Virus record (IMG/VR): IMGVR_UViG_3300023202_000135
Location: 26,693-90,692 of that record
Strand: one strand, 5' to 3'
DNA length: 64,000 nucleotides
Origin: a virus
Positions 26,483-48,398 of the stretch are shown in pieces. Within the stretch, counting starts at the first letter, position 1, and each line of letters begins with the position of its first letter. A program made the position numbers and the translations under genes. The notes beneath the pieces are model-generated. The model was given only the letters and a program-made list of their open reading frames with translations. It ran no database searches and was not told the origin of the DNA.

Positions 26483-26956
26483 CTATGCGGGGGGCCACGC
26501 GCTCCGCGCACCGGGCCACGCGATCATCACGTCGAAGGCATTGCCGAGCGGGGCATCGGGGTGCTTCTGTTCGCTCCATAGCTCCTGGTACGCGTCTTCG
26601 GTCGGGACGCCGTGCGGGAAGTAATCCGTGGCGTAATCGAGCAACGTCGCCGGGCGTCCGAGCCGCGCCGTCATCACGTGGAGAGTGTAGCACCACATGA
26701 CAACCTTGGCCGGGTTGTTGCACAAGCTGGCGCAGAACGTCAGCAGGCTGCGGTCGTAGGCGACGTTGGTGGCCTCGAACCGTTTGACGGCGATGCCTAT
26801 AGCGAACTCACCTCGCACCTCGCGCCACAAGTCGTCAGACATGGTCGGGTGCACGAGCGGATTGAGGCCGACGAACAGCTCGGCCTCCTCCGCGGTCATT
26901 TCACGCACCGGGCAGCCGATCAGACCGGCGCCCAGGGGTAGTTCTTCGTCGCTCAT
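26483..26956 (-). CDS. Hypothetical protein
   Basis: Start MSDEELP, ATGA overlap with the upstream gene. Confidence 0.65.
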   Translation of the reverse strand: MSDEELPLGAGLIGCPVREMTAEEAELFVGLNPLVHPTMSDDLWREVRGEFAIGIAVKRFEATNVAYDRSLLTFCASLCNNPAKVVMWCYTLHVMTARLGRPATLLDYATDYFPHGVPTEDAYQELWSEQKHPDAPLGNAFDVMIAWPGARSAWPPA

Positions 26957-30396: not shown

Positions 30397-30455
30397 GAGC
30401 CGATTCTGGCACCACGGCAAATGCTGCAACCGCGTCAATATGGCGTAGTGCCGAG

Positions 30456-30526
30456 TTGCCTCCCCTGGACTCGAACCAGAACTAGCAGAGCCAAAATCTG
30501 CTGTGCTACCATTACACCAGGAGGCA
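30456..30526 (-). tRNA. tRNA-Gln(TTG)
   Basis: Acceptor TGCCTCC/GGAGGCA, anticodon arm GCAGA-TTTTGGC-TCTGC, T-loop GGTTCGAGTCC. Confidence 0.9.
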
Positions 30527-30645: not shown

Positions 30646-30687
30646 CTGCCAAGGGAGGGGTCGAACCTCCGACCAGCGGATTAACAG
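30646..30687 (-). pseudogene. 3' half of an interrupted tRNA-Asn(GTT)
   Basis: CTGTTAA-TCCGC-TGGTC-GGAGG-TTCGACC-CCTCC-CTTGGCA; its acceptor strand pairs with TGCCAAG at 31181-31187. Confidence 0.8.
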
Positions 30688-30690
30688 AAG

Positions 30691-30763
30691 CAGCCGGTGT
30701 GGGACTCGAACCCACTTCTCGCGGTTAACAGCCGCGCGTAAAGACCTGCTATACTATCCGGCT
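30691..30763 (-). tRNA. tRNA-Asn(GTT), nested in the interrupted tRNA-Asn
   Basis: AGCCGGA/ACCGGCT acceptor (one mismatch), CGCGG-CTGTTAA-CCGCG, GTGGG-TTCGAGT-CCCAC. Confidence 0.85.
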
Positions 30764-31125
30764 TGACGTGCGTTGTACCTGCCTGCGCATTTGCGTCCGC
30801 AGAACAGCAAGCCTGACCGACGCTGCGCCGCGAATCGAACCCTTGCGCGTGTCCGTTGGAATGCCTTACCGCATTCCGGGCATTCGAGATCAACCGCAGG
30901 ATGCGCATGGCGCGAACCATGATCCGCTCGCTTCACGAGTTCCAAGTTACCCGGTCGATTGTCCCGCTTCTTCCCGTTCATGTGATGGATCAGCTCGCCG
31001 GGCCCGGGGACCACTCCGTGCGTCTCCCAGTAGACGAGGTGATGCTCATAGCAGTACAGGCCTCGGTACCGCTTTCCGGGGTACCCTTCCGGGGCTTTCA
31101 CCAGCTCGTACGGCCCGTTCCTCAT
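30754..31125 (-). CDS. HNH homing endonuclease with C-terminal Zn ribbon
   Basis: YEHHLV...IHHMNGKKRDNRPGNLELV...H; CPECGK...FCGRKC. Confidence 0.9.
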   Translation of the reverse strand: MRNGPYELVKAPEGYPGKRYRGLYCYEHHLVYWETHGVVPGPGELIHHMNGKKRDNRPGNLELVKRADHGSRHAHPAVDLECPECGKAFQRTRARVRFAAQRRSGLLFCGRKCAGRYNARQAG

Positions 31126-31131
31126 TCGGGT

Positions 31132-31159
31132 AGTGTAGAACCGGAGTTAACACCGGCAA
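31132..31159 (-). promoter_or_regulatory. Promoter for leaderless HNH transcript
   Basis: TTGCCG-16 nt-TACACT, 6 nt upstream of the ATG; the spacer holds an imperfect palindrome CCGGtGTTAACtCCGG. Confidence 0.55.
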
Positions 31160-31161
31160 GC

Positions 31162-31187
31162 CCGCTCTACCGCTGAGCTACTTGGCA
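31162..31187 (-). pseudogene. 5' half of the interrupted tRNA-Asn
   Basis: TGCCAAG-TA-GCTC-AGCGGTA-GAGC: acceptor strand plus a complete D-arm, after which the tRNA pattern breaks. Confidence 0.8.
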
Positions 31188-31190
31188 ATA

Positions 31191-31276
31191 TGGCGGAAGG
31201 TCAAGGAATCGAACCCTCATGCTTTCACATGGCCCGGTTTTCGAGACCGGTTGGACGCCGTTGTCCGCGACCCTCC
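31191..31276 (-). tRNA. tRNA-Ser(CGA)
   Basis: CCGGT-CTCGAAA-ACCGG, long variable arm CATG-TGAAAG-CATG, T-loop TTCGATT, encoded CCA. Confidence 0.9.
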
Positions 31277-31283
31277 GTAGTAT

Positions 31284-31356
31284 TGCTGCGAGGAGGAATC
31301 GAACCCCCGACCCGTCGATTACGAAACGACCGCTCTGCCGGCTGAGCTACCGCAGC
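31284..31356 (-). tRNA. tRNA-Thr(CGT)
   Basis: GCTGCGG/TCGCAGC acceptor, GTCGT-TTCGTAA-TCGAC, GGTTCGATTCC. Confidence 0.9.
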
Positions 31357-31362
31357 ATGAAA

Positions 31363-31490
31363 TGATCGTCCCTGCCCGTCAGGGTAAAGCTCCGTCGCGG
31401 CCTCGAACCGCGTCCTTCCGTTCCGGGTGGGGATCGAACCCATGGGGGAGGTCGACGCCTCCCGAAGCCCATCGAACGAAGCAACGATCG
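31363..31490 (-). ncRNA. Putative tRNA-like structured RNA with two T-arms
   Basis: TGGG-TTCGATC-CCCA and CGCGG-TTCGAGG-CCGCG; GCTTCGT/ACGGAGC 7-bp stem; ends GATCGT/ACGATC pair. Confidence 0.5.
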
Positions 31491-31493
31491 TAG

Positions 31494-32651: not shown

Positions 32652-33323
32652 TCACTTCACCGCGCGGTACGCGATGCGCTTGCCGATCCGGTTGATGGAT
32701 GCCCCGCTGAGTCCGTACTCCTCGCCCAGTTCCCGCTGGTTCTCGCCGGCATCGTACCGAGCGCGGATATCGCGGACCTGCGCGTCGGTCAAGGCTCCGC
32801 GACGCGATCCGCGACCTACCTTGGTAATCGGCCCCCCAACCGCAGGCCACGTGACTCCCGTGACAAGCTGCCCGATGGTGGGCTGGCTTACCCCGAACTC
32901 GACGGCAAGGTCGGACTGCTTGGATCCGGCCGCGTACCTCTTTCTAATGTCGACGATATTCTCGTCGGACAGCTTTCGCCCGTTGCCGAGCACAGCACGC
33001 GAGTGGAGATTGTTCGTCGTTGGCGTAGTCCACTCCAAGTTTGCCGGTCGGTTGTTCTGTCGGTCACCGTCGATGTGGTTGACCGGGGAGTCGGCGTGAG
33101 ATGGTGGGCCGTTGAATGCGCGGCAGACGAGGCGGTGAACCAGCACCTGCTTCTGCTCGTTGCGGTGGCTCAACGTCACCCGCAGATAACCCATCGTGTG
33201 GTTCTTGAGGGCGAGCACACCGCCGCCGGATCCCCGGCTTTTCGACACGCGCCGCACGTTGCCGTGGTCGCTGACCTCGTAGACGCCTTCATAGCCGTCG
33301 ACGGGCTTCCAGGATTCGGACAT
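32652..33323 (-). CDS. NUMOD4-HNH homing endonuclease with C-terminal HTH repeats
   Basis: ESWKPVDGYEGVYEVSDHGNVR, VHRLV..AF, VNHIDGDRQNNRPANLEW.T...N; two LT...V.DIR.RY.AG HTH repeats. Confidence 0.92.
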   Translation of the reverse strand: MSESWKPVDGYEGVYEVSDHGNVRRVSKSRGSGGGVLALKNHTMGYLRVTLSHRNEQKQVLVHRLVCRAFNGPPSHADSPVNHIDGDRQNNRPANLEWTTPTTNNLHSRAVLGNGRKLSDENIVDIRKRYAAGSKQSDLAVEFGVSQPTIGQLVTGVTWPAVGGPITKVGRGSRRGALTDAQVRDIRARYDAGENQRELGEEYGLSGASINRIGKRIAYRAVK

Positions 33324-39620: not shown

Positions 39621-42600
39621 TCACAGCTTGAGCGCGGCGTGCTTCTTCTTCGCGGTGGCGGCCGTGACGACAACATCCTCCAGCCCGCGGCCGAACGCAA
39701 ACTTGGTGATACCCCGTTGCTTGAGCGCCTCGCGTGCCTGGACGACGCTCATCGACGGGATGATGAACAAGCACCGCCGTAGGTCGATGCCGTGCCGGAA
39801 TATGATCTGGTGGCTCGACCCGATCGACGCCTGTGACCGCAGCATCGACTTGCCCATCTCCAGCCACACCTCGGGCGTGTTGTACCGGGTCGAGGACAAG
39901 TTGGCAAAACTGTCGCCGGTGCCGCACATCTTGGTGTCGGTCTCCAGCATAGCGTCTATCGAGAAGTACAGGTACCCGGATCCGCCCGTGATGCTATGTA
40001 CCGCGTTGGTGAACGCGTGGTCCCCGCCACCGTTGTTGGCGTCCTGCGACTGCGACCCCGAGCCCGCGCCGCCGCCGGGGGGCACGCCGTAGAAGGGTAG
40101 TCGGTTCGCGGTCGGGGCGAGCATCGGCACGCCGCCGAGGATCATCTTGTCGACGTTGCCAGAGTGGGAGACCATCGCCTCCTTGCCTCCGTTGATCTTC
40201 CGCCACGCCTCGCGGTAGGCCTCGGACGTCCACCCGAGGAAGTGGTGTTTGCGGTACCCGCCTTCCCCGTCGACGGCCGAGAGCTGGCCGTCGATCTGAC
40301 CGGCAGTGAGTTCCTGGAGCTTCGACACGCTGACGCCGAGCTGCTGGGCGAGGAAAGCCTGCATCTTCTCGATCACTTCGTCGGGCACGTCCTGGTCCGG
40401 GTCCGAGGACATGTAGGTGTTGAGCGCGTCCTGGAGGCCTCCGGTCGGGACGATGCTGCCGGCGCTGCTGGGGTTGGCTGCGGCGACCTCTGCCACGGTC
40501 AGCGTGTCTCCCGCGTTGATTTTCTTCTGGTAGCTCGGCTTGATGAGGATCTTGGTGCCTTCGACCTCGTAGTGTTCCCCGCGCACGAGCACGCGACCGT
40601 TGTGGCGCACGCCGTATTTGTCCGGGTCGATCGCGCCGTTCCACCCCGCAGGTAAGGATGCCTGAACGCCTTCGGGCAAATCGCCTGAGACGCTGATGTC
40701 ATAAGTGTCCTTGTTCGGGTCCGCGGCGATCGTCCGGCGGGATTTGACGTTCATGTACGCCGCCGATTGCTTCGACCAGAACAAGGCCTCGCGATCCTTC
40801 TTCGTCGACGGGCGCATCGGGATCTGCGACGCAACCTCGAACAGAGCCAGGGCGCGCTTCACGGTGGCCGGCGAGGGCGTCCCGGGGACATAGGCCCAGC
40901 AGAATCCGTGCCACGTCTTGGCGCCGCCGACCTGGACAGGGGAGAAGAACATCTTGGCCCCGCCCTGCTTCTCGCCAATGCGGAACGATCCGCGGTGATT
41001 GAGCGATTGCGAGGTCGAGGCCTCCAGGAGCTTGATGCGCATAATGCCGGCGTCGTCGACGTAGGCGTCGGGACCGGGCGTGGACGTCGAGAAGTCGACC
41101 TCGATGTTGGGGAGATCCTGGGGTAGTGGCTCTTCGACTTCCTCGCCTTGGGCCTGCGCGAGCCACGCATCGTAATCGAAGGTGAACGGCGAGAAGATCG
41201 CGCCGTCGTTGACCTTGGGGTAGCTCTTCCAATCGTCCTTCGGTTCCGTCGCGCCGGCCGCGACTGACTTGATCTCGCTGATCCACTGGAGGTAGGTACC
41301 GGCCATGTTGAAGACGGCCTCGGGGGCGTCTTTCGGTGCGCCGGCCTTGCCCGCCTTCACCTTGTACAGCTCGCCCGATCCGAGCTTCCCCTCGGCCTCG
41401 TCCTGGAGCGCGGTGAGGACGGCGGTGAGAACATCGACGGCGGTGAGCGTGTCCTGGTTGAACTTCGGCGGGTTCTCCTCCCCGGCGATGGCCTTGTTGA
41501 GGTGGAAGTTCACGGTCTTCACGGCCTTCGTGATGGCGTCCGCGAAGCCGTTGTGCGAATCCGTAGTGGATGGCTGGACGCCGATGGGCTGGAGCGTACC
41601 GATCCCGCCGCCCTTCGTCACGGACATAGGGTTGACGGTGATCTTGTTGAGCGCCTCGACGGCCGCGACGGACGCGTACTCCGTGACCTTCCACGTGAGG
41701 ATAGTGACGTCGGAGTCGTCCTTCATCTTCGCGTGCTTGACCCATACCTCCTGGTTCTCGATTGAAGCCTTGTCGACGCGCACCGTGCGTCCGGCCCACT
41801 TCGCGTCGATCGCCTTCTTGATGTCGAGCGCCTCCTCTTCGGTCATGCCGAATTGCTCCGGGCTCGCATCGAGCACCTGGACGGGCGCGCTCTTGACCGG
41901 GACGGTCTCGGGCCACGCGAACAGCTTGTTGAGCTTCTTGAGTGCCTTGGTCCACGCGTCGAAGTAGTTATCCCGCCACGCCACCACGTCCGCGATGACC
42001 TCGGCCCGCTTCTTGGGCTTGTAATCGAGCGCATCGAAGAGGGGCTGGAGCGCCCCCTCGATCGCGACGTCGGGGATGGACTGGATGTCCGCGATGGTGC
42101 GGCGCATCGACACGAAGGCCGAATCAGGGATCACGGACGGGTCCTTGGCGTAGGCCAAGAGCAGGGTCTTGGTGACGGCTTGCCCGTGAACGCCGCTGGG
42201 GGTGAACTTGGGGTCGAGCTTCGGCGCCATCTTGTTCGTAGTGAAGAAGCGGAAGCTCTGCCCCTTGTCGATCGGCCGCAGTTTGCCGTTGACGAGGATC
42301 CAATTGGACGGGTTGCCGTCGTGGTCCTGCGTGAACATGTCCAGCGCATGCTGCTGGAGGAGGATCACCTTGTTCTGGTTGTCGAGCCCGGTCGGGTCGT
42401 CCGGCACCGGCGACTGCTCGCCCTCCCACAGCGGTTGCAGCGCCCACTTCTTGCCCTCGAACTCCACGACGCGCACCGGGTTGGTGTTGCTGGTCACGAG
42501 GCCGAACAGCTTCGATGCCGCTTCTTCCGCGTGGAGGCGCGCGGTGTTCCCGTTGTCGACGCCCTTGAGGCCCTTGGCGATAAAGTTGAGGCCCGTCTCG

Positions 42601-45600
42601 GGATCGTTGAGCTTGAGGTTCGGCGTGGAGCCGCCGCCGAGGTTGCCCTTCTTCACCAGCTTCGACGCGTCGAGCTTGTGCAGGTAATCCTTCCGGCTCT
42701 GGTAGTCAAAGCCGACCTTCGGCGTGACGACGACAGGGCTGGGCTCCTCAAACGAGACCTCTGCCTCGCCGCCGACCGCGCCCGTCTTGACCTTTTTCTT
42801 CGGCGCGTCGACCGGGGCTTTGGCGGCCGGCTTCTTCTTCGCCTTCGCCTTGCTGCTGATGACCTTGAGCAGAGCAGTGTACTGCCCCTTCTTGAGCATG
42901 CCCGGCACGAAGGACTGCGCCATCACAGGAATCAGCGAGGACGGCGCGTAGGACGCCGCCTCCATCCCCGCGTCCTCGCAATACTGCTTGAACGTGATCG
43001 GGTTCATGCCGACCGAGTCGAGCGTCGACCCGTAGGCGATCTTCTTGATTCCCGCGTTGATGAGCGACTTGGGGTGTGTGTGGAACGCGTAGTGGGTACC
43101 GAATGACTCTTTGTCATCGGCGGCCTCAATAATGCCCCACTCCGTGTGCTCCTTCTGGCGCAGCACGTGGTACTTGCCGAGGGAGTCGACGAAGAGCGCG
43201 ATGTTGAGGTTGCGGTCCTGGCCCTTGTTCGGGCCCGAATCCTGCGCGCCCGTGATCGACAGGTACCCAATCAGCGTGGCGTTGATCGGCACGCTGATCT
43301 TGGTGCCGGGCGCGGGGTGGTTGTCGAGGAACAGGTAGCTGGCCGCGTACTTGAACTTCGCGAGGCCCTTGGACCCCGCAAAGCTCTTGATCTGGTCGAC
43401 GGCTTCGGGCGGGATTGGGAACTGGCTCTTATCGGCCAGCAGCGCCCACGTGTCTTCTTCCGTAGTGGCCTCGGCCGCCGCGATGGCCGTTGACATGCCC
43501 AGCGGCTTGAACGCCTCGGGGGGAGTCTCGACCGAGGCGTTCTCGGTGAGGATGAGGACATCGAAGTCGATCGCGACGGTAGCCTCTCCGGTCTCCTCGT
43601 CGATCTCCTCGAAGTCATTCTTGTTGCGGTATGCGAGGTAGAGGTTCTTCGATCCATCCGCCATCTCCGCGCGGATGTAACCCACGCACCAAGCGGTTAT
43701 CTCCTCGCCGCCTTCGACGGCCACGGTGAATCCGGCGCCCGGAGGCGGGTACTGTTCTTCGGGTCCCTGGTCGGGGTTGAGGACGGACTTGTTGCCGCCG
43801 AGGTCCTGGAGGTACGGCACCCACTTCCAGGATTCCCAATCGTCCTGGTCCCCCAGCACTTCCTCGAACCACGTGTCGACGCTGTCGCCGCTTTCATCGC
43901 CATCGGTGTAGGGGGCCTCCGTGTCGACGTCGTAGTCGACGACCGAGGCATCCTTGTTGGCCACCGCTTGCACGGAAAACGGAGCTTGCCCTTCGTCGAT
44001 GATCTTGACGCCCGGTACAGGGAACGGCGGCTTGAACTCCGGAACCTGGACCGACGCCAGCGCGGTGACGTCGCCTTCCTCAGACGGCACGTTGTCGATC
44101 GCCGTCTCCTTGTTCTTGAGCAGGGAGCTGAGCGCAGCGTCGATCGCCTTGACTTGCCAATCGTTACCCGACTTGCTGGTGAGCTTGCCGGGGTCCGCCT
44201 TGCTTTCGCGGATCACGACGCCGTCCGTGCCCTTGCCCGCCTTGGTCGGGTTTCCGCTGGTCACGCGAGCGATGAACATGCGGTGAACGGCCGCGTCACC
44301 CTCGAAGTCCCCGACGCTTCGCACCAGCTCGACGTTGAGCCCGAGGTGTTCCTTGGCCGCTCGCTGCGCTGCGTACTCGATGCTCTCCCCGTCGCGGATG
44401 CGAGCGGAAGGAAGGCGGAAGTGGTACCCGCCGTGGCCGGGCTGCGTCGGGTCCTTCGCCCCGGTCGGGCGGTACAGCACGTAGAAGAGGCCGTCCGTAG
44501 TGACGGACTTGCCGCCCATAGTGATCGCAGCGGTGCTGGGCATGTACGCGATCACACCCGCGCAGAGGTGCTTGCCCTTCGGGATCTTCTTGAACGGGGT
44601 CTGCTTGATCGGCTTGACGGAGATAGGCGCGAGGTCCGCATCGGGTCCGATGCTCCCGTCTGCGCTGCTGAACGCCGAGTCTGCTCCCTTGCCGAAGGTG
44701 ATCTCCGGGTTGTCGCCGTCCAAGTATGCGAGGCCCGTGGCGGTATGCAGCACGGGGGTGAGGAGGTCGAGCCACTCCCCGAGGTCCATGACCGTCATGC
44801 CGCCGGCCTCGGTCACCGCAACGGCCGACAGCTTCTCCTCGCCGTTCGGGTTCTTCCGGCGCACCCACGCGACGAGTTGGAGGAGCGCCTCGGTGTCCTC
44901 CTCGACCGCCTTGGCCCACGACCCGACCAGCACCTTCGAGACGCTAGGGGCGTTGACGAGGTACGACCCCATGTTGTGCAGGGCGCCCTCTTCCAGCTCC
45001 TTCTGGATCATGCCGATGTGCTCGTCCGGCACCATGTAGTTGAGACGAGGGAACGGGTACTCGCCCGCATGGCTGGCGCCGATGAGCACGAAGTCGGGCC
45101 ATGCAGGGGCGGTGATCCAGTCGCTATCCGCGCCGTCCTGCGAGACACCGACGAAGGCCTTGACCTTGTTGTTGACGAGCACGTAGGCCGCGACGTTCCA
45201 CACGAAGCCAAGCTCTTCATGCTTCACCGTGGATCCGACCGGGAACGGCTCGCTGCCATCGGTCGGCGCCAGTACCATGTCGCCGGCCAGGGCCATCTGC
45301 TCCGTGATGATCCCCCAATGGCCCGCCTCGATGCCGTAGTTAACGGCCTTGAGCTGGTCCACGAGCGGAATCTTCGGCGGCGTCTCGGAAGGGCCGAACC
45401 CTCCCGTATCATCCGCGAGGGCCACTTGCAGCGAGTCGATGTGCTCGGCCAGGACGAACCCCTCCCCTACCTTATCAGTCCGGTAGAAGAGGTAGACCGC
45501 GGCGCCGTGCATCGTGTTGGCGAATGCGATGATCTTGTTGGGCTTGCCCGCCCACTCGACGACGTCACCTACCTTATGATCCGCTCCGAGAGGCGTGTTG

Positions 45601-48398
45601 ATGGGGCCGGTCATGTCGTGGTTGGACAGGTACGAGGACAGTCCGGCCCAGGCTTCCTGCGGCACCACGTAGTTGGTTGCCGAGAATGGGTACCCGAGCG
45701 GGGTCTTGGGGAGCTTGGGCTGGCTGATGCCGGCGGGCGTCGCGTCGGCGTCGCCTTCGTCTCCTTCGTCGCCGGTGGCGGTCCCCTGCCCCACGGGTGT
45801 CACGACGTCACCGGAGGGGATCAGGGCGTCGACGGTCTCCTGGTCGAACTGGATCTCGCCTTGCTCTTCGATCTCACTCTCGATCGCATTCCACGCGGTG
45901 TTCGCGGCCTGCCACCAAAAGGGGCTCTTTTTCTTCGAGCCGCCGATCTGCTTCCGGACAATGGCCAAGAACTTCTTGCCGCCCTTGACGGCGTTGACGT
46001 AGGCGACGACGACGTGCTGCGTGCCCTTGTAGGTATAGATCGTTCCCAAGTCGAACGGGAAGCCATCGGCTTTGACGCCGGGCTTCATCGTGTCGCCTTC
46101 GCCCGCGTTGATGAGGAGGAACTTCGAGACCTCGGGGTCGACCCACTCCGGCGGCGGGTTCTTGATGAGGTCGATCGCGCGCTTGGTGCCCGACAGGTTC
46201 GTAGTGGGGTCGACGCCATTCTCGACGTGGCTTCCGTCCTCGGGCTCCGGAGGTTGCGCGGCGCCGGGGTTCTGCGCGGGCTGCGGGGCTTGTCCCGGAG
46301 GGGCCGCCTGGATGAGGCCGAACGTGGGCATCCCGCTGATGAACCCTGACGTGAGCGCCCACAGGCTGTTGTCCTTCTTGGACAAGTAGGTGGCGACCAC
46401 CGGCGTATTACCGAACGCCTGGGGCTTGTCGGCGTCCGGAACGTGCACCATCTTGAAGTGGGGTCCGTCCGCGATCATGGCCGGGAGCGCCCCGACGTTG
46501 TCGGGGCCGACCTTGCCGCCGATCTCCGCGTCCTTTACCTCCGCCTTCGGCATGTGCTTGGTCAGGAACGGCAGCCCGGGGTCGTCTTGCAGCACAAGAT
46601 CGTAGTAGCTGATCTGGTCACCCGTCACCATGTAGACGAGAATCGGGTTCCCGACCGGCGGCATGATGATCGTGCCCGGCTCGATGTCCGGCCCCGGGTC
46701 GCTGCCCGCGCCCATGACGTCAAGGACGCCCGTGTTGTTCGCGCTCTCCAGGCCTTGGGCACCGCCCGCAGGCATAGCAAAGGTCTTGCCGAAGGAGTCT
46801 CGGACAATGTAGAACAGCGTATCGCCGTTAACCCCGATGCCGGCGAGCACCTGGATCCACTCCTGCGTCATGTCCTGGTGGACCCACTTCGTGCTGGGAT
46901 CCGTGACGCCGTTCTCGACGCCGAGGTAGGTGTCCTTGAGCGCGATGAGCTGTCCCTGGTGAAACGTGGCCATCTGCTCGAAGAAGTCGATCTGGTTCTG
47001 CGGAATGCCCGCCTTCGCGGACATATCGTCCTTGGCCGTGCCGTGCGTGCCCTTCGGCGGCGTCGCGCCGGGGCCCTCAGCGCCGGGGTCTTTGGCGGGC
47101 GCAAACGTAGTGATCTTGACGTTGTCATCGTTCGGTTTCGTAGTGGGAGAGCCGGGCTCATTGGCGTTGGGCGGCGGTGCGGGCTTGTTCTGTGAGACCG
47201 ACTTGAGCTGGTCCTTGATGTTGCCGGTGGTGGTCGGCTGCGTGTCGAGGTGCGGGAACGCCTGGAGGAAGAGCGGGTAGATGTCACTGTTGGGGTCGAG
47301 CGCGTCCTTGATGGTTTCGAGGTCGCCCTTGATCGCTGAGTTCACGAGCGACTTGAAGATGGTCCCCTGCCACTTGTTCTTCGCGGCCCACTTTTGGAGC
47401 GTGAGCAAGAACGCTCTCGTCTGACTGGTAGTGATCTTCTGACCGAGGCGCATCTTCGACATGTGCGTGTAGAGCGCCTCGGGCAGCGTGGCGAAGTCGG
47501 TGGCGGCGGGGTCGACGTAATGCTTGCCGCCGGGGTGCAGGAATTGGGAGTAGACCTGGATGAGGTCGTTGTACTTCGGCGGGTGGATGTGCTGCGTCAG
47601 CTCCGGGACCGGCTTGTCGAACAGCGCCTTGAGCAGCTTGTTGTCGTGGAGGTGCACAGCGTAGTAGGCCACCACGATCGGCCACGCGGCCTTCGATGCC
47701 TGGGTCTTGGGCTTCTTGCCGTGGTCCAGCCAGAAGTGTTCGTCGAGCTGGCAGTTCGCCATCTCGTTGAGGTCTTCGCGCGCGTACTCGCTGACCTCGT
47801 CGTCGGACTCGCCCATGAGCCGAGCCGCCAGCACGAGCGGGTTGGCGGCCGTGTGGTACCGGCGGAAGATCGCGTTGCCCACAGCACCTGCGCTTTCACC
47901 GAAGGCCTTGCGGTAATCGAGCTGCGTGCCCGTGGCCTGGACGTAATCCTCGCAGAACCGAGCGGCCTTCTCGGGGGTGAGGCCGTACTCCCACCGCCAC
48001 GCGTCGAGCTGGAACGCGTTGTAGACCTCATCCGGCTCCGCGTTGAGTAGTGACGTAATGTCATCGGTCTCGTCGAGCAGGCCGGCGTCGATGGCCTCCG
48101 CGCGCACCGACTCAACCCACCGATGCGCGGCGTCGCCGCCGTGCAGCTTCCAGGACCGGAGGTACGCGTCGTCGGCGGTCGTGTGCAGGGCTTGCTCCGC
48201 CAGCTCCTTGTTGCGCTCGTTGATCGCGAAGAACCGGCCCATCTTGCGGATGTCGTCGAGGGTTGCGACGCCTTCCTTGAGAGCCTTCGCGATCGACACG
48301 CCGTGGACGTCGAGGAGCTTCTCGCCCTGCTCGTGCTCCTCCAGCGCCGCGGCTGCGGCTTCCTGGATGTTCTCCGGCACTTCGTAGGTCAGTCGCAT
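39621..48398 (-). CDS. Giant polyvalent protein (degenerate Nudix, PI3/4-kinase/HipA-like, possible ART-like C terminus)
   Basis: 2925 aa; AGV...LP...DGES...AA.R..KE..GL (Nudix-like); GGGST...FIAK...AE..AS...DHDGN..N...IDKG (kinase-like); SH...S.SQD..NGG.D.AFT...QIIFR. Confidence 0.85.
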   Translation of the reverse strand: MRLTYEVPENIQEAAAAALEEHEQGEKLLDVHGVSIAKALKEGVATLDDIRKMGRFFAINERNKELAEQALHTTADDAYLRSWKLHGGDAAHRWVESVRAEAIDAGLLDETDDITSLLNAEPDEVYNAFQLDAWRWEYGLTPEKAARFCEDYVQATGTQLDYRKAFGESAGAVGNAIFRRYHTAANPLVLAARLMGESDDEVSEYAREDLNEMANCQLDEHFWLDHGKKPKTQASKAAWPIVVAYYAVHLHDNKLLKALFDKPVPELTQHIHPPKYNDLIQVYSQFLHPGGKHYVDPAATDFATLPEALYTHMSKMRLGQKITTSQTRAFLLTLQKWAAKNKWQGTIFKSLVNSAIKGDLETIKDALDPNSDIYPLFLQAFPHLDTQPTTTGNIKDQLKSVSQNKPAPPPNANEPGSPTTKPNDDNVKITTFAPAKDPGAEGPGATPPKGTHGTAKDDMSAKAGIPQNQIDFFEQMATFHQGQLIALKDTYLGVENGVTDPSTKWVHQDMTQEWIQVLAGIGVNGDTLFYIVRDSFGKTFAMPAGGAQGLESANNTGVLDVMGAGSDPGPDIEPGTIIMPPVGNPILVYMVTGDQISYYDLVLQDDPGLPFLTKHMPKAEVKDAEIGGKVGPDNVGALPAMIADGPHFKMVHVPDADKPQAFGNTPVVATYLSKKDNSLWALTSGFISGMPTFGLIQAAPPGQAPQPAQNPGAAQPPEPEDGSHVENGVDPTTNLSGTKRAIDLIKNPPPEWVDPEVSKFLLINAGEGDTMKPGVKADGFPFDLGTIYTYKGTQHVVVAYVNAVKGGKKFLAIVRKQIGGSKKKSPFWWQAANTAWNAIESEIEEQGEIQFDQETVDALIPSGDVVTPVGQGTATGDEGDEGDADATPAGISQPKLPKTPLGYPFSATNYVVPQEAWAGLSSYLSNHDMTGPINTPLGADHKVGDVVEWAGKPNKIIAFANTMHGAAVYLFYRTDKVGEGFVLAEHIDSLQVALADDTGGFGPSETPPKIPLVDQLKAVNYGIEAGHWGIITEQMALAGDMVLAPTDGSEPFPVGSTVKHEELGFVWNVAAYVLVNNKVKAFVGVSQDGADSDWITAPAWPDFVLIGASHAGEYPFPRLNYMVPDEHIGMIQKELEEGALHNMGSYLVNAPSVSKVLVGSWAKAVEEDTEALLQLVAWVRRKNPNGEEKLSAVAVTEAGGMTVMDLGEWLDLLTPVLHTATGLAYLDGDNPEITFGKGADSAFSSADGSIGPDADLAPISVKPIKQTPFKKIPKGKHLCAGVIAYMPSTAAITMGGKSVTTDGLFYVLYRPTGAKDPTQPGHGGYHFRLPSARIRDGESIEYAAQRAAKEHLGLNVELVRSVGDFEGDAAVHRMFIARVTSGNPTKAGKGTDGVVIRESKADPGKLTSKSGNDWQVKAIDAALSSLLKNKETAIDNVPSEEGDVTALASVQVPEFKPPFPVPGVKIIDEGQAPFSVQAVANKDASVVDYDVDTEAPYTDGDESGDSVDTWFEEVLGDQDDWESWKWVPYLQDLGGNKSVLNPDQGPEEQYPPPGAGFTVAVEGGEEITAWCVGYIRAEMADGSKNLYLAYRNKNDFEEIDEETGEATVAIDFDVLILTENASVETPPEAFKPLGMSTAIAAAEATTEEDTWALLADKSQFPIPPEAVDQIKSFAGSKGLAKFKYAASYLFLDNHPAPGTKISVPINATLIGYLSITGAQDSGPNKGQDRNLNIALFVDSLGKYHVLRQKEHTEWGIIEAADDKESFGTHYAFHTHPKSLINAGIKKIAYGSTLDSVGMNPITFKQYCEDAGMEAASYAPSSLIPVMAQSFVPGMLKKGQYTALLKVISSKAKAKKKPAAKAPVDAPKKKVKTGAVGGEAEVSFEEPSPVVVTPKVGFDYQSRKDYLHKLDASKLVKKGNLGGGSTPNLKLNDPETGLNFIAKGLKGVDNGNTARLHAEEAASKLFGLVTSNTNPVRVVEFEGKKWALQPLWEGEQSPVPDDPTGLDNQNKVILLQQHALDMFTQDHDGNPSNWILVNGKLRPIDKGQSFRFFTTNKMAPKLDPKFTPSGVHGQAVTKTLLLAYAKDPSVIPDSAFVSMRRTIADIQSIPDVAIEGALQPLFDALDYKPKKRAEVIADVVAWRDNYFDAWTKALKKLNKLFAWPETVPVKSAPVQVLDASPEQFGMTEEEALDIKKAIDAKWAGRTVRVDKASIENQEVWVKHAKMKDDSDVTILTWKVTEYASVAAVEALNKITVNPMSVTKGGGIGTLQPIGVQPSTTDSHNGFADAITKAVKTVNFHLNKAIAGEENPPKFNQDTLTAVDVLTAVLTALQDEAEGKLGSGELYKVKAGKAGAPKDAPEAVFNMAGTYLQWISEIKSVAAGATEPKDDWKSYPKVNDGAIFSPFTFDYDAWLAQAQGEEVEEPLPQDLPNIEVDFSTSTPGPDAYVDDAGIMRIKLLEASTSQSLNHRGSFRIGEKQGGAKMFFSPVQVGGAKTWHGFCWAYVPGTPSPATVKRALALFEVASQIPMRPSTKKDREALFWSKQSAAYMNVKSRRTIAADPNKDTYDISVSGDLPEGVQASLPAGWNGAIDPDKYGVRHNGRVLVRGEHYEVEGTKILIKPSYQKKINAGDTLTVAEVAAANPSSAGSIVPTGGLQDALNTYMSSDPDQDVPDEVIEKMQAFLAQQLGVSVSKLQELTAGQIDGQLSAVDGEGGYRKHHFLGWTSEAYREAWRKINGGKEAMVSHSGNVDKMILGGVPMLAPTANRLPFYGVPPGGGAGSGSQSQDANNGGGDHAFTNAVHSITGGSGYLYFSIDAMLETDTKMCGTGDSFANLSSTRYNTPEVWLEMGKSMLRSQASIGSSHQIIFRHGIDLRRCLFIIPSMSVVQAREALKQRGITKFAFGRGLEDVVVTAATAKKKHAALKL

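Follow-up and report, generated by a model that had tools for sequence, protein, structure and literature searches.

A 64,000-nucleotide (nt) stretch of the IMG/VR virus record IMGVR_UViG_3300023202_000135 (positions 26,693 to 90,692 of that record), called the window in what follows, contains a cluster of transfer RNA (tRNA) genes in which one gene, for tRNA-Asn, lies in two pieces. Between these outer halves are the gene for an HNH endonuclease and a second, complete tRNA-Asn(GTT) gene, here called the inner tRNA (Table 1). All coordinates of the split locus are read on the minus strand. A first description, made from the letters of the DNA alone and referred to as the sequence-only reading, had noted outer halves with complementary acceptor strands some 475 nt apart, an HNH gene between them, a divergent inner tRNA-Asn(GTT) that overlaps the 3' end of that gene by 10 nt, and an incomplete 5' strand in the outer anticodon stem. 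Profile searches, tRNA gene callers and direct reading recovered all of these elements.

Table 1. Features of the split tRNA-Asn locus and its immediate neighbours (window coordinates).
Feature	Coordinates	Strand	Method
tRNA-Ser(CGA), upstream neighbour, 3 nt from the outer 5' remnant	31191..31276	-	ARAGORN
Outer (resident) tRNA-Asn, 5' remnant: acceptor 5' strand, D arm, positions 26-27 (28 uncertain)	31161..31187	-	direct reading; D arm by script
Putative cassette promoter: TTGCCG (31159-31154), TACACT (31137-31132), 16-nt spacer, 6 nt to ATG	31132..31159	-	reading by eye
HNH_3 endonuclease gene, 123 amino acids, C-terminal Cys4 zinc-finger-like module	30754..31125	-	Pfam, PHROG
Inner tRNA-Asn(GTT), complete	30691..30763	-	ARAGORN (30763-30690); Rfam tRNA model (30763-30691), 52.3 bits
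Right junction, CTT: three bases from the inner tRNA discriminator to C32 of the outer 3' remnant	30688..30690	-	direct reading
Outer (resident) tRNA-Asn, 3' remnant, positions 32-73	30646..30687	-	nhmmer tRNA-Asn profile
tRNA-Gln(TTG), downstream neighbour	30455..30526	-	ARAGORN; Rfam

The outer 5' half consists of the acceptor strand TGCCAAG (31187-31181), the dinucleotide TA, a D arm of the form GCTC-AGCGGTA-GAGC (31178-31164), and G26 and G27 (31163-31162). The outer 3' half resumes in the anticodon loop, CTGTTAA (30687-30681) with its GTT anticodon, and continues through TCCGC (the 3' strand of the anticodon stem), a variable loop TGGTC, a T arm GGAGG-TTCGACC-CCTCC (30670-30654), the acceptor strand CTTGGCA (30653-30647) and a discriminator G (30646). 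Taken by itself, this 3' half matches positions 32-74 of a tRNA-Asn profile (nhmmer, E value 6.9e-6), and the two acceptor strands form seven of seven Watson-Crick pairs (31187-31181 with 30653-30647) across a gap of 474 nt. Absent is the 5' strand of the anticodon stem, at about positions 28-31, which would be the partner of TCCGC, so that 4-5 bases are gone. Given these missing bases and the lack of any detectable intron ribozyme, splicing cannot restore the outer tRNA. An unrelated viral contig, L277 (related and comparison loci are identified by L numbers throughout), contains an intact TGCCAAG...CTTGGCA tRNA-Asn that is identical to the outer halves at 25/27 (5') and 34/42 (3') positions, with no HNH homologue within 2.8 kilobases (kb) around it. 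The shared acceptor stem and D arm of this intact gene indicate that the outer halves represent a real type of tRNA-Asn.

The HNH_3 gene provides the only match to a protein family among open reading frames (ORFs) between the outer halves, and is the only member of its family in the 90.7-kb record. Its product matches Pfam HNH_3 (PF13392) over residues 26-70 with 42.7 bits against a cut-off of 24.8 (4.5e-11), and PHROG 7545, HNH endonuclease, at 3.9e-14; the best PHROG matches are all described as 'HNH endonuclease'. Six catalytic-type residues (H28, H47, H48, N56, N60 and H73) and three zinc-finger cysteines (C82, C85 and C109) are invariant across 61 family sequences. When the protein was searched against the sequences of solved structures, only the zinc-finger part found a match, and that a weak one. 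The stop codon, TAG, coincides with positions 8-10 of the inner tRNA, which accounts for the 10-nt overlap of ORF and tRNA. The inner tRNA carries an A7-A66 mismatch, a D stem of 3 base pairs (bp) and a discriminator G, and its CCA end is not encoded; its identity with the outer tRNA-Asn is 13/26 in the 5' part and 29/42 in the 3' part.

The best overall explanation, to which we assign a probability of roughly 0.7, is that the resident tRNA-Asn gene has become two non-functional halves, with the inner tRNA as the sole tRNA-Asn candidate of the cluster, and that the 474-nt insert is a free-standing homing-endonuclease cassette composed of a weak promoter, the gene for an HNH_3/zinc-finger nuclease, and a tRNA-Asn(GTT) gene entered by the ORF.

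The junctions of the insert contain short repeats. The tetranucleotide GCTT occurs after the inner tRNA acceptor (30691-30688), after the outer acceptor (30646-30643) and at the left junction (31161-31158), and may reflect microhomology used during insertion, or chance. A separate observation concerns GCCGGTG (31157-31151), which follows the outer 5' remnant, overlaps the putative -35 box, and is the exact complement of CACCGGC (30699-30693) in the 3' acceptor region of the inner tRNA. Together they offer an alternative 'acceptor' pairing of 6-7 bp that includes the 7-66 pair, which is A-A in the inner tRNA. The heptamer might have survived from an earlier 5' strand, or the match may be accidental (odds of about 0.02 on our own rough estimate).

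The sequence-only reading took the HNH gene to be free-standing, and the searches for introns agree. No group I or group II intron was detected in the window by an Rfam scan with E values up to 10, nor at the Rfam gathering threshold in 20 related loci, and the intron mode of ARAGORN found no intron-bearing tRNA in the window. With about 60 non-coding bases before the HNH ORF and three bases between the inner tRNA and the outer 3' half, there is no room for a ribozyme; the ORF is located between RNA genes, outside any self-splicing intron. A group I intron in the tRNA was rejected as a candidate: there is no Intron_gpI match, positions 28-31 are missing, and the exons cannot give a complete tRNA. 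A tRNA-in-tRNA intron of the Lak phage type was also set aside, because the insert includes a promoter-like region and the HNH ORF and because the outer anticodon stem cannot form. Likewise, an integrase-borne island does not fit, as no integrase lies between the halves and what is repeated is either the 5' sequence of a tRNA or an entire tRNA, not a 3' end.

Processing without a ribozyme can also be imagined: RNase P and RNase Z would free the inner tRNA and an RNA ligase would join the outer halves, so that the insert would be an intervening sequence and both tRNAs would be made. In its favour, the end of the inner tRNA is 3 nt away from C32 of the outer 3' half, GCCGGTG and CACCGGC would allow the two ends of the insert to pair, and phage tRNA introns with a possible tRNA gene of their own are described by Devoto et al. 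(2019, PMC6784885). We nevertheless regard this as very unlikely. After excision GGCTT would face TCCGC, with which it cannot pair, the 5' strand of the anticodon stem being missing; a promoter and a 372-nt ORF upstream of the inner tRNA would have to be excised as well; and position 27 is not followed by a second processing signal. The negative intron searches above point in the same direction. Moreover, the distal pairing is absent on inspection by eye from two relatives with the same nested layout (L045 and L121), and four split relatives (L068, L063, L044 and L123) have no tRNA-like end to their insert at all.

The window DNA comes from metagenome assembly, and repeated tRNA genes can mislead assemblers, so a chimera that mis-joins reads of two tRNA-Asn genes has to be weighed as well. 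Contigs of a second sequencing run from the same study cross both junctions, the left one at 31062-31379 and the right one at 30675-30845, with zero differences, and one 12,959-nt contig of the first run covers the entire split locus; the two runs share one study, and the window DNA may itself derive from the first. The nested layout is also present in the unrelated assemblies of L045 and L121. A chimera seems to us next to negligible as an explanation.

Relatives of the HNH gene also link the nuclease to tRNA-Asn. Homologues are abundant in uncultivated viral contigs and metagenomes (35-56% identity), and the protein has no close homologue in cultured phages, where tblastn returned only 5 distant records (34-39% identity). 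A census of 122 loci plus the window, drawn from the window, IMG/VR and metagenomes (metagenome loci being 80 of 128 relatives), was collapsed to 84 clusters, and tRNAs and tRNA-Asn-like fragments were mapped at each. An intact tRNA-Asn(GTT) touches the HNH gene in 58 of the 84. In 46 clusters it starts at the 3' end of the gene (-100 to +25 nt of the stop), the ORF running into the tRNA in 40 of these and stopping at tRNA positions 8-10, as in the window, in 12; in another 12 an intact tRNA-Asn ends 0-72 nt before the ATG. Four clusters have an Asn-like gene that ARAGORN did not call or that is cut by the contig end, ten have Asn-like fragments only, and 12, several with very short flanks, have no trace of tRNA-Asn. 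Across the census clusters, no isotype other than tRNA-Asn takes the place at the 3' end of the HNH gene. The loci range from 26 to 64% G + C, which indicates that the element has spread over very different phages. On these comparisons of sequence, the family is widespread, apparently undescribed, and apparently specialised on phage tRNA-Asn genes. In literature searches that covered few subscription journals, no description turned up of HNH nucleases that specialise on the tRNA-Asn genes of phages and leave the tRNAs split or replaced.

Fragments of tRNA-Asn around the HNH gene are not peculiar to the window. The sequence-only reading considered the nested replacement layout unusual, a judgement that does not extend to the family: the succession of 5' half, HNH gene, inner tRNA and 3' half recurs independently in L045 (7/7 Watson-Crick acceptor pairs) and L121 (six Watson-Crick pairs and one G-U pair). 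In four other loci the halves surround an HNH gene with no inner tRNA, with seven of seven pairs in L068 and six plus one in each of L063, L044 and L123. A third arrangement is found in L035 and L122 (7/7) and L116 (6 + 1), where a 5' remnant directly before the ATG pairs with the 3' acceptor strand of an intact tRNA downstream. The D arm of that downstream tRNA is unlike the remnant's in all three loci, as is its 5' acceptor strand in L035 and L116.

Detection of the remnants calls for some care. The nhmmer profile of the 5' half missed the 5' halves of the window, L048 and L044, and a regular expression for the D arm was added. That expression is unspecific when used alone (21 control matches in 36.8 kb), so the claim of remnants rests on an acceptor-pairing control. 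Complete pairing within the same locus (7/7, counting Watson-Crick and G-U pairs) with a downstream strand linked to a T arm was seen in 10 of 24 loci with a 5' remnant, window included. The cross-locus control gave 10 of 552 pairings (1.8%), equivalent to 0.43 expected in 24. Where the boundaries were read, the last base of the 5' remnants lies at about positions 21-31 and the first base of the 3' remnants at 32-36 or later, which together indicate one insertion zone. The same break zone recurs across loci of 26-64% G + C.

Several other loci show variations on these arrangements. The inner tRNA of L121 (at about 600-720 in that locus) is placed like the Asn genes of the family and has a TTT (Lys) anticodon, possibly an anticodon switch. 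A mirror-image order of 5' remnant, intact tRNA-Asn and HNH gene is present in L039 (1351-1459) and L057 (1347-1451), and L098 has an intact tRNA-Asn, the HNH gene, and then a 3' remnant from the anticodon loop on. A tRNA after the HNH gene in L129 (1054-1122) has a 5' acceptor strand unable to pair with its own 3' strand and looks like a chimera. All that is left in L127 (about 590-640) is a 'mini-tRNA', in which 13 nt separate the acceptor 5' strand from a T arm and the acceptor 3' strand.

These data also bear on whether the HNH gene might be a bystander, a nuclease that settles in tRNA clusters and may cut elsewhere or be inactive, with the tRNA-Asn fragments arising from ordinary rearrangement of the cluster by recombination, slippage and decay. 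Phage tRNA clusters are indeed rich in homing endonuclease genes of several families, an unrelated NUMOD4/HNH_3 gene lies 1.5 kb away, and degenerate tRNA-like pieces occur elsewhere in the cluster (31442-31424). HNH identity is not tracked by the identity of the whole neighbouring tRNA, and relatives of the phage T4 homing endonuclease SegB are associated with tRNAs of many isotypes, according to PMC13096335. Against this, the association described here is isotype-specific, with tRNA-Asn(GTT) touching the gene in more than two thirds of the clusters; acceptor-matched fragments flank the HNH gene far more often than in the cross-locus control; and one break zone recurs over a wide span of base composition. 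A bystander gene is thus an unlikely account of the locus, though a somewhat better contender than processing of the insert.

The putative promoter is associated with a recurring hexamer. GTTAAC (31151-31146) lies inside the 16-nt spacer, and in five relatives (L030, L074, L088, L073 and L079) a TTGAC-type -35 box is followed by GTTAAY at the same distance from the ATG. Of 82 loci, 24 have GTTAAY in the 60 nt ahead of the ATG, where shuffles predict 2.8; a control window placed within the ORF contains it in 1 of 84. It falls into two classes of position: at -27/-26, directly after a TTGAC-like box (the window and the five relatives just named), and at -10 to -15. In both classes the ATG stands only a few bases past the likely -10 element, a spacing suggestive of leaderless transcripts. 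The hexamer is similar to the Asn anticodon loop, CTGTTAAY; it could have been left over from the target, or it could serve as an operator that imitates the target. Of the elements listed in the sequence-only reading, the promoter is the least secure: the consensus scan considered below did not call one, and the putative site given here was read by eye and draws its support from the counterparts in these five relatives.

How might a homing cassette have produced the locus? The nuclease would cut or nick the tRNA-Asn genes of phages free of the HNH gene, somewhere from the D arm to the anticodon loop, and during co-infection the break would be repaired from the cassette-bearing phage, with the conserved tRNA segments on both sides serving as short homology arms. 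In the window the cassette would have entered the resident tRNA-Asn between positions 27 and 32, with the loss of 4-5 bases. The tRNA sequence beside the nuclease gene would be co-converted, usually the 5' part and, in the window, the whole tRNA. A right-hand crossover inside the tRNA would give a hybrid tRNA plus an upstream 5' remnant, as in loci of the L035 type; a right-hand crossover past the donor tRNA would give the nested layout of the window; and if no tRNA sequence were brought in, the gene would simply be split. The inner allele would presumably be immune to the nuclease, and if expressed could leave the insertion neutral for the phage. The predicted target is a stretch of 30-40 bp of the tRNA-Asn gene.

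A more ambitious version of the homing hypothesis is possible, which we offer tentatively and rate well below even odds. The HNH family could be a specialist parasite of tRNA-Asn that uses conserved tRNA segments as portable homology arms across unrelated phages (26-64% G + C), restores the damage it does by means of the tRNA sequence it carries, and keeps making chimeric alleles, possibly with built-in regulation. The GTTAAY in the promoter could be a target-mimic operator for autorepression. As for the stop codon inside the tRNA, RNase P processing of a co-transcript would strip the stop from the nuclease mRNA, which may limit translation.

A number of results weigh against the cassette explanation. 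One of them is the behaviour of the tRNA as a passenger. Family-wide, the identity of the whole neighbouring tRNA does not follow that of the HNH protein (rho 0.02, p 0.36), so a stable unit of nuclease plus its own tRNA is not the family rule. In keeping with the repair model above, there is a weak correlation for the tRNA 5' part (rho 0.13, Mantel p 0.018), a value that overlap of the ORF with this part could inflate, and none for the anticodon arm (rho -0.01) or the 3' part (0.03). As only the 5' part co-diverges, the usual passenger looks like the tRNA 5' part, and a whole tRNA, as in the window, the rarer case. The window inner tRNA is most similar to the tRNAs beside its closest HNH relatives (L031, L030 and L082), which lends mild support to the view that here the whole tRNA came with the nuclease. 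The homing element envisaged in the sequence-only reading finds support in its architecture and its evolutionary logic; cutting of the tRNA-Asn gene, resistance of the inner allele and neutrality are predictions.

Further adverse points concern the locus itself. With its A-A mismatch and weak D stem, the inner tRNA may be less than fully functional; the consensus promoter scan called nothing before the HNH gene, the TTGCCG/TACACT site being sub-threshold; and the junctions show no clean target duplication or long homology, being compatible with both homologous repair and end joining. The census clusters that lack any tRNA-Asn trace, some of them short-flanked, mean that the link to tRNA-Asn is not absolute. 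A canonical TRGYTCA was counted by eye in 18 of 24 remnants and in 12 of 58 intact neighbours, but detection of the remnants favoured canonical D arms, and this biased contrast is unused as evidence.

The last set of adverse results is the failure to find an empty site. Contigs of three runs from one study showed no join that bypasses the cassette. Scanning viral contigs for the exact pattern of the intact outer tRNA gave 0 matches, and no empty-site allele turned up in a close relative. A looser pattern applied to genome contigs gave at least 120 matches, and all 25 distinct sequences among the matches listed are bacterial tRNA-Phe(GAA), not Asn. No close relatives were found among cultured phages, since megablast returned nothing and blastn only single-tRNA matches. 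Genes for a T4-type major capsid protein and a prohead protease lie directly upstream of the tRNA region, and the capsid protein has T4-like relatives in 19 loci (53-68% identity). A tRNA near the capsid gene was found in 0 of 18 scanned loci, and with no tRNAs beside that gene in the relatives, no syntenic empty site can be read. Together with the range of base composition, the same lack of tRNAs speaks for spread of the cassette. An intact TGCCAAG...CTTGGCA tRNA-Asn, which the sequence-only reading proposed to look for in relatives between tRNA-Ser and tRNA-Gln, exists in the unrelated contig L277, with no HNH homologue in the 2.8 kb around it; none was found in a close relative.

The wider setting is a 90.7-kb linear sequence with a CheckV completeness estimate of 49%. 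ARAGORN calls six minus-strand tRNAs, in the order Ile, Gly, Thr, Ser(CGA), Asn(GTT) and Gln, and Rfam confirms them. A second, unrelated homing-type nuclease gene (223 amino acids; NUMOD4, HNH_3 and helix-turn-helix) lies between the capsid gene and the tRNA cluster at 32652-33323 (-). The 136-nt gap between tRNA-Gly and tRNA-Thr, 31358-31493 (-), contains T-arm-like pieces, especially at 31442-31424, TGGGTTCGATCCCCACCCG and nearby GCGGTTCGAGGCCGC, with no callable tRNA; these may be further decayed tRNA genes. Upstream of tRNA-Ile, at 31850-31685 (-), are a strong promoter-like site (TTGACT-16-TACGAT), a short ORF and a terminator-like hairpin, and CTACG(A/G)T-like motifs are repeated between the tRNAs of the cluster. 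Elsewhere, the window has a very long ORF of 2925 amino acids at 39621-48398 (-).

Phage tRNA genes are now regarded as tools of counter-defence, and tRNA-Asn is among the isotypes attacked by tRNA-cleaving defences such as PARIS. Viral variants of tRNA-Lys, tRNA-Thr and tRNA-Asn overcome the PARIS nuclease (bioRxiv 10.1101/2025.02.04.636281), and SegB-driven amplification of a tRNA region defeats Septu (PMC13096335). If the homing explanation is true, this nuclease family would directly drive the turnover of tRNA alleles by specifically breaking, replacing and recombining the tRNA-Asn genes of unrelated phages, and would exemplify a selfish element that compensates for the harm it does. There is also a lesson for annotation, in that orphan tRNA halves and ORFs running into tRNAs can be footprints of homing and not errors.

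Genes left in pieces by free-standing homing endonuclease genes have a precedent in mobE, which splits nrdA in Aeromonas phage Aeh1, and integrative elements target tRNA genes and carry a copy of the part that they displace. What these cases share with the window is the interruption of a host gene by a mobile element, with function preserved either through the pieces or through a duplicated segment that the element supplies. The window element differs in that its target is an RNA gene, no integrase is involved, and the duplicate is a tRNA 5' part or a whole tRNA, not a 3' end.

The 'enigmatic' tRNA introns of Lak megaphages, one of which possibly encodes a tRNA according to the relevant passages of Devoto et al. 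(2019, PMC6784885), likewise have a tRNA-like gene nested in a phage tRNA gene. Those passages mention no nuclease gene, and in them alleles with and without the intron align as intact tRNA. The window insert, by contrast, includes a nuclease gene, and its removal would not give back the outer tRNA.

Among known systems T4 SegB comes closest. It is a free-standing GIY-YIG homing endonuclease encoded in the T4 tRNA cluster. As the pertinent sections of PMC2330249 describe it, the preferred SegB site is inside the gene for tRNA-Asn in phages T2L, RB1 and RB3, and homing excludes the recipient tRNA region by co-conversion; relatives of SegB are broadly co-located with tRNA genes of many isotypes in the corresponding sections of PMC13096335. 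The differences are considerable. The GIY-YIG fold of SegB has its counterpart here in HNH_3 with a zinc finger. In these sources SegB recognises a T-arm motif and cuts many tRNA genes, whereas the footprints of the window family point to the D arm to anticodon loop of one isotype. Fusion of ORF and tRNA, halves of the target, and tRNA duplications characterise the window family, and the passages on segB make no mention of flanking halves or of an ORF running into a tRNA. Both, however, are free-standing nuclease genes among phage tRNA genes, SegB too with a site in tRNA-Asn, and the window element is best placed with the free-standing homing endonucleases of phage tRNA clusters.

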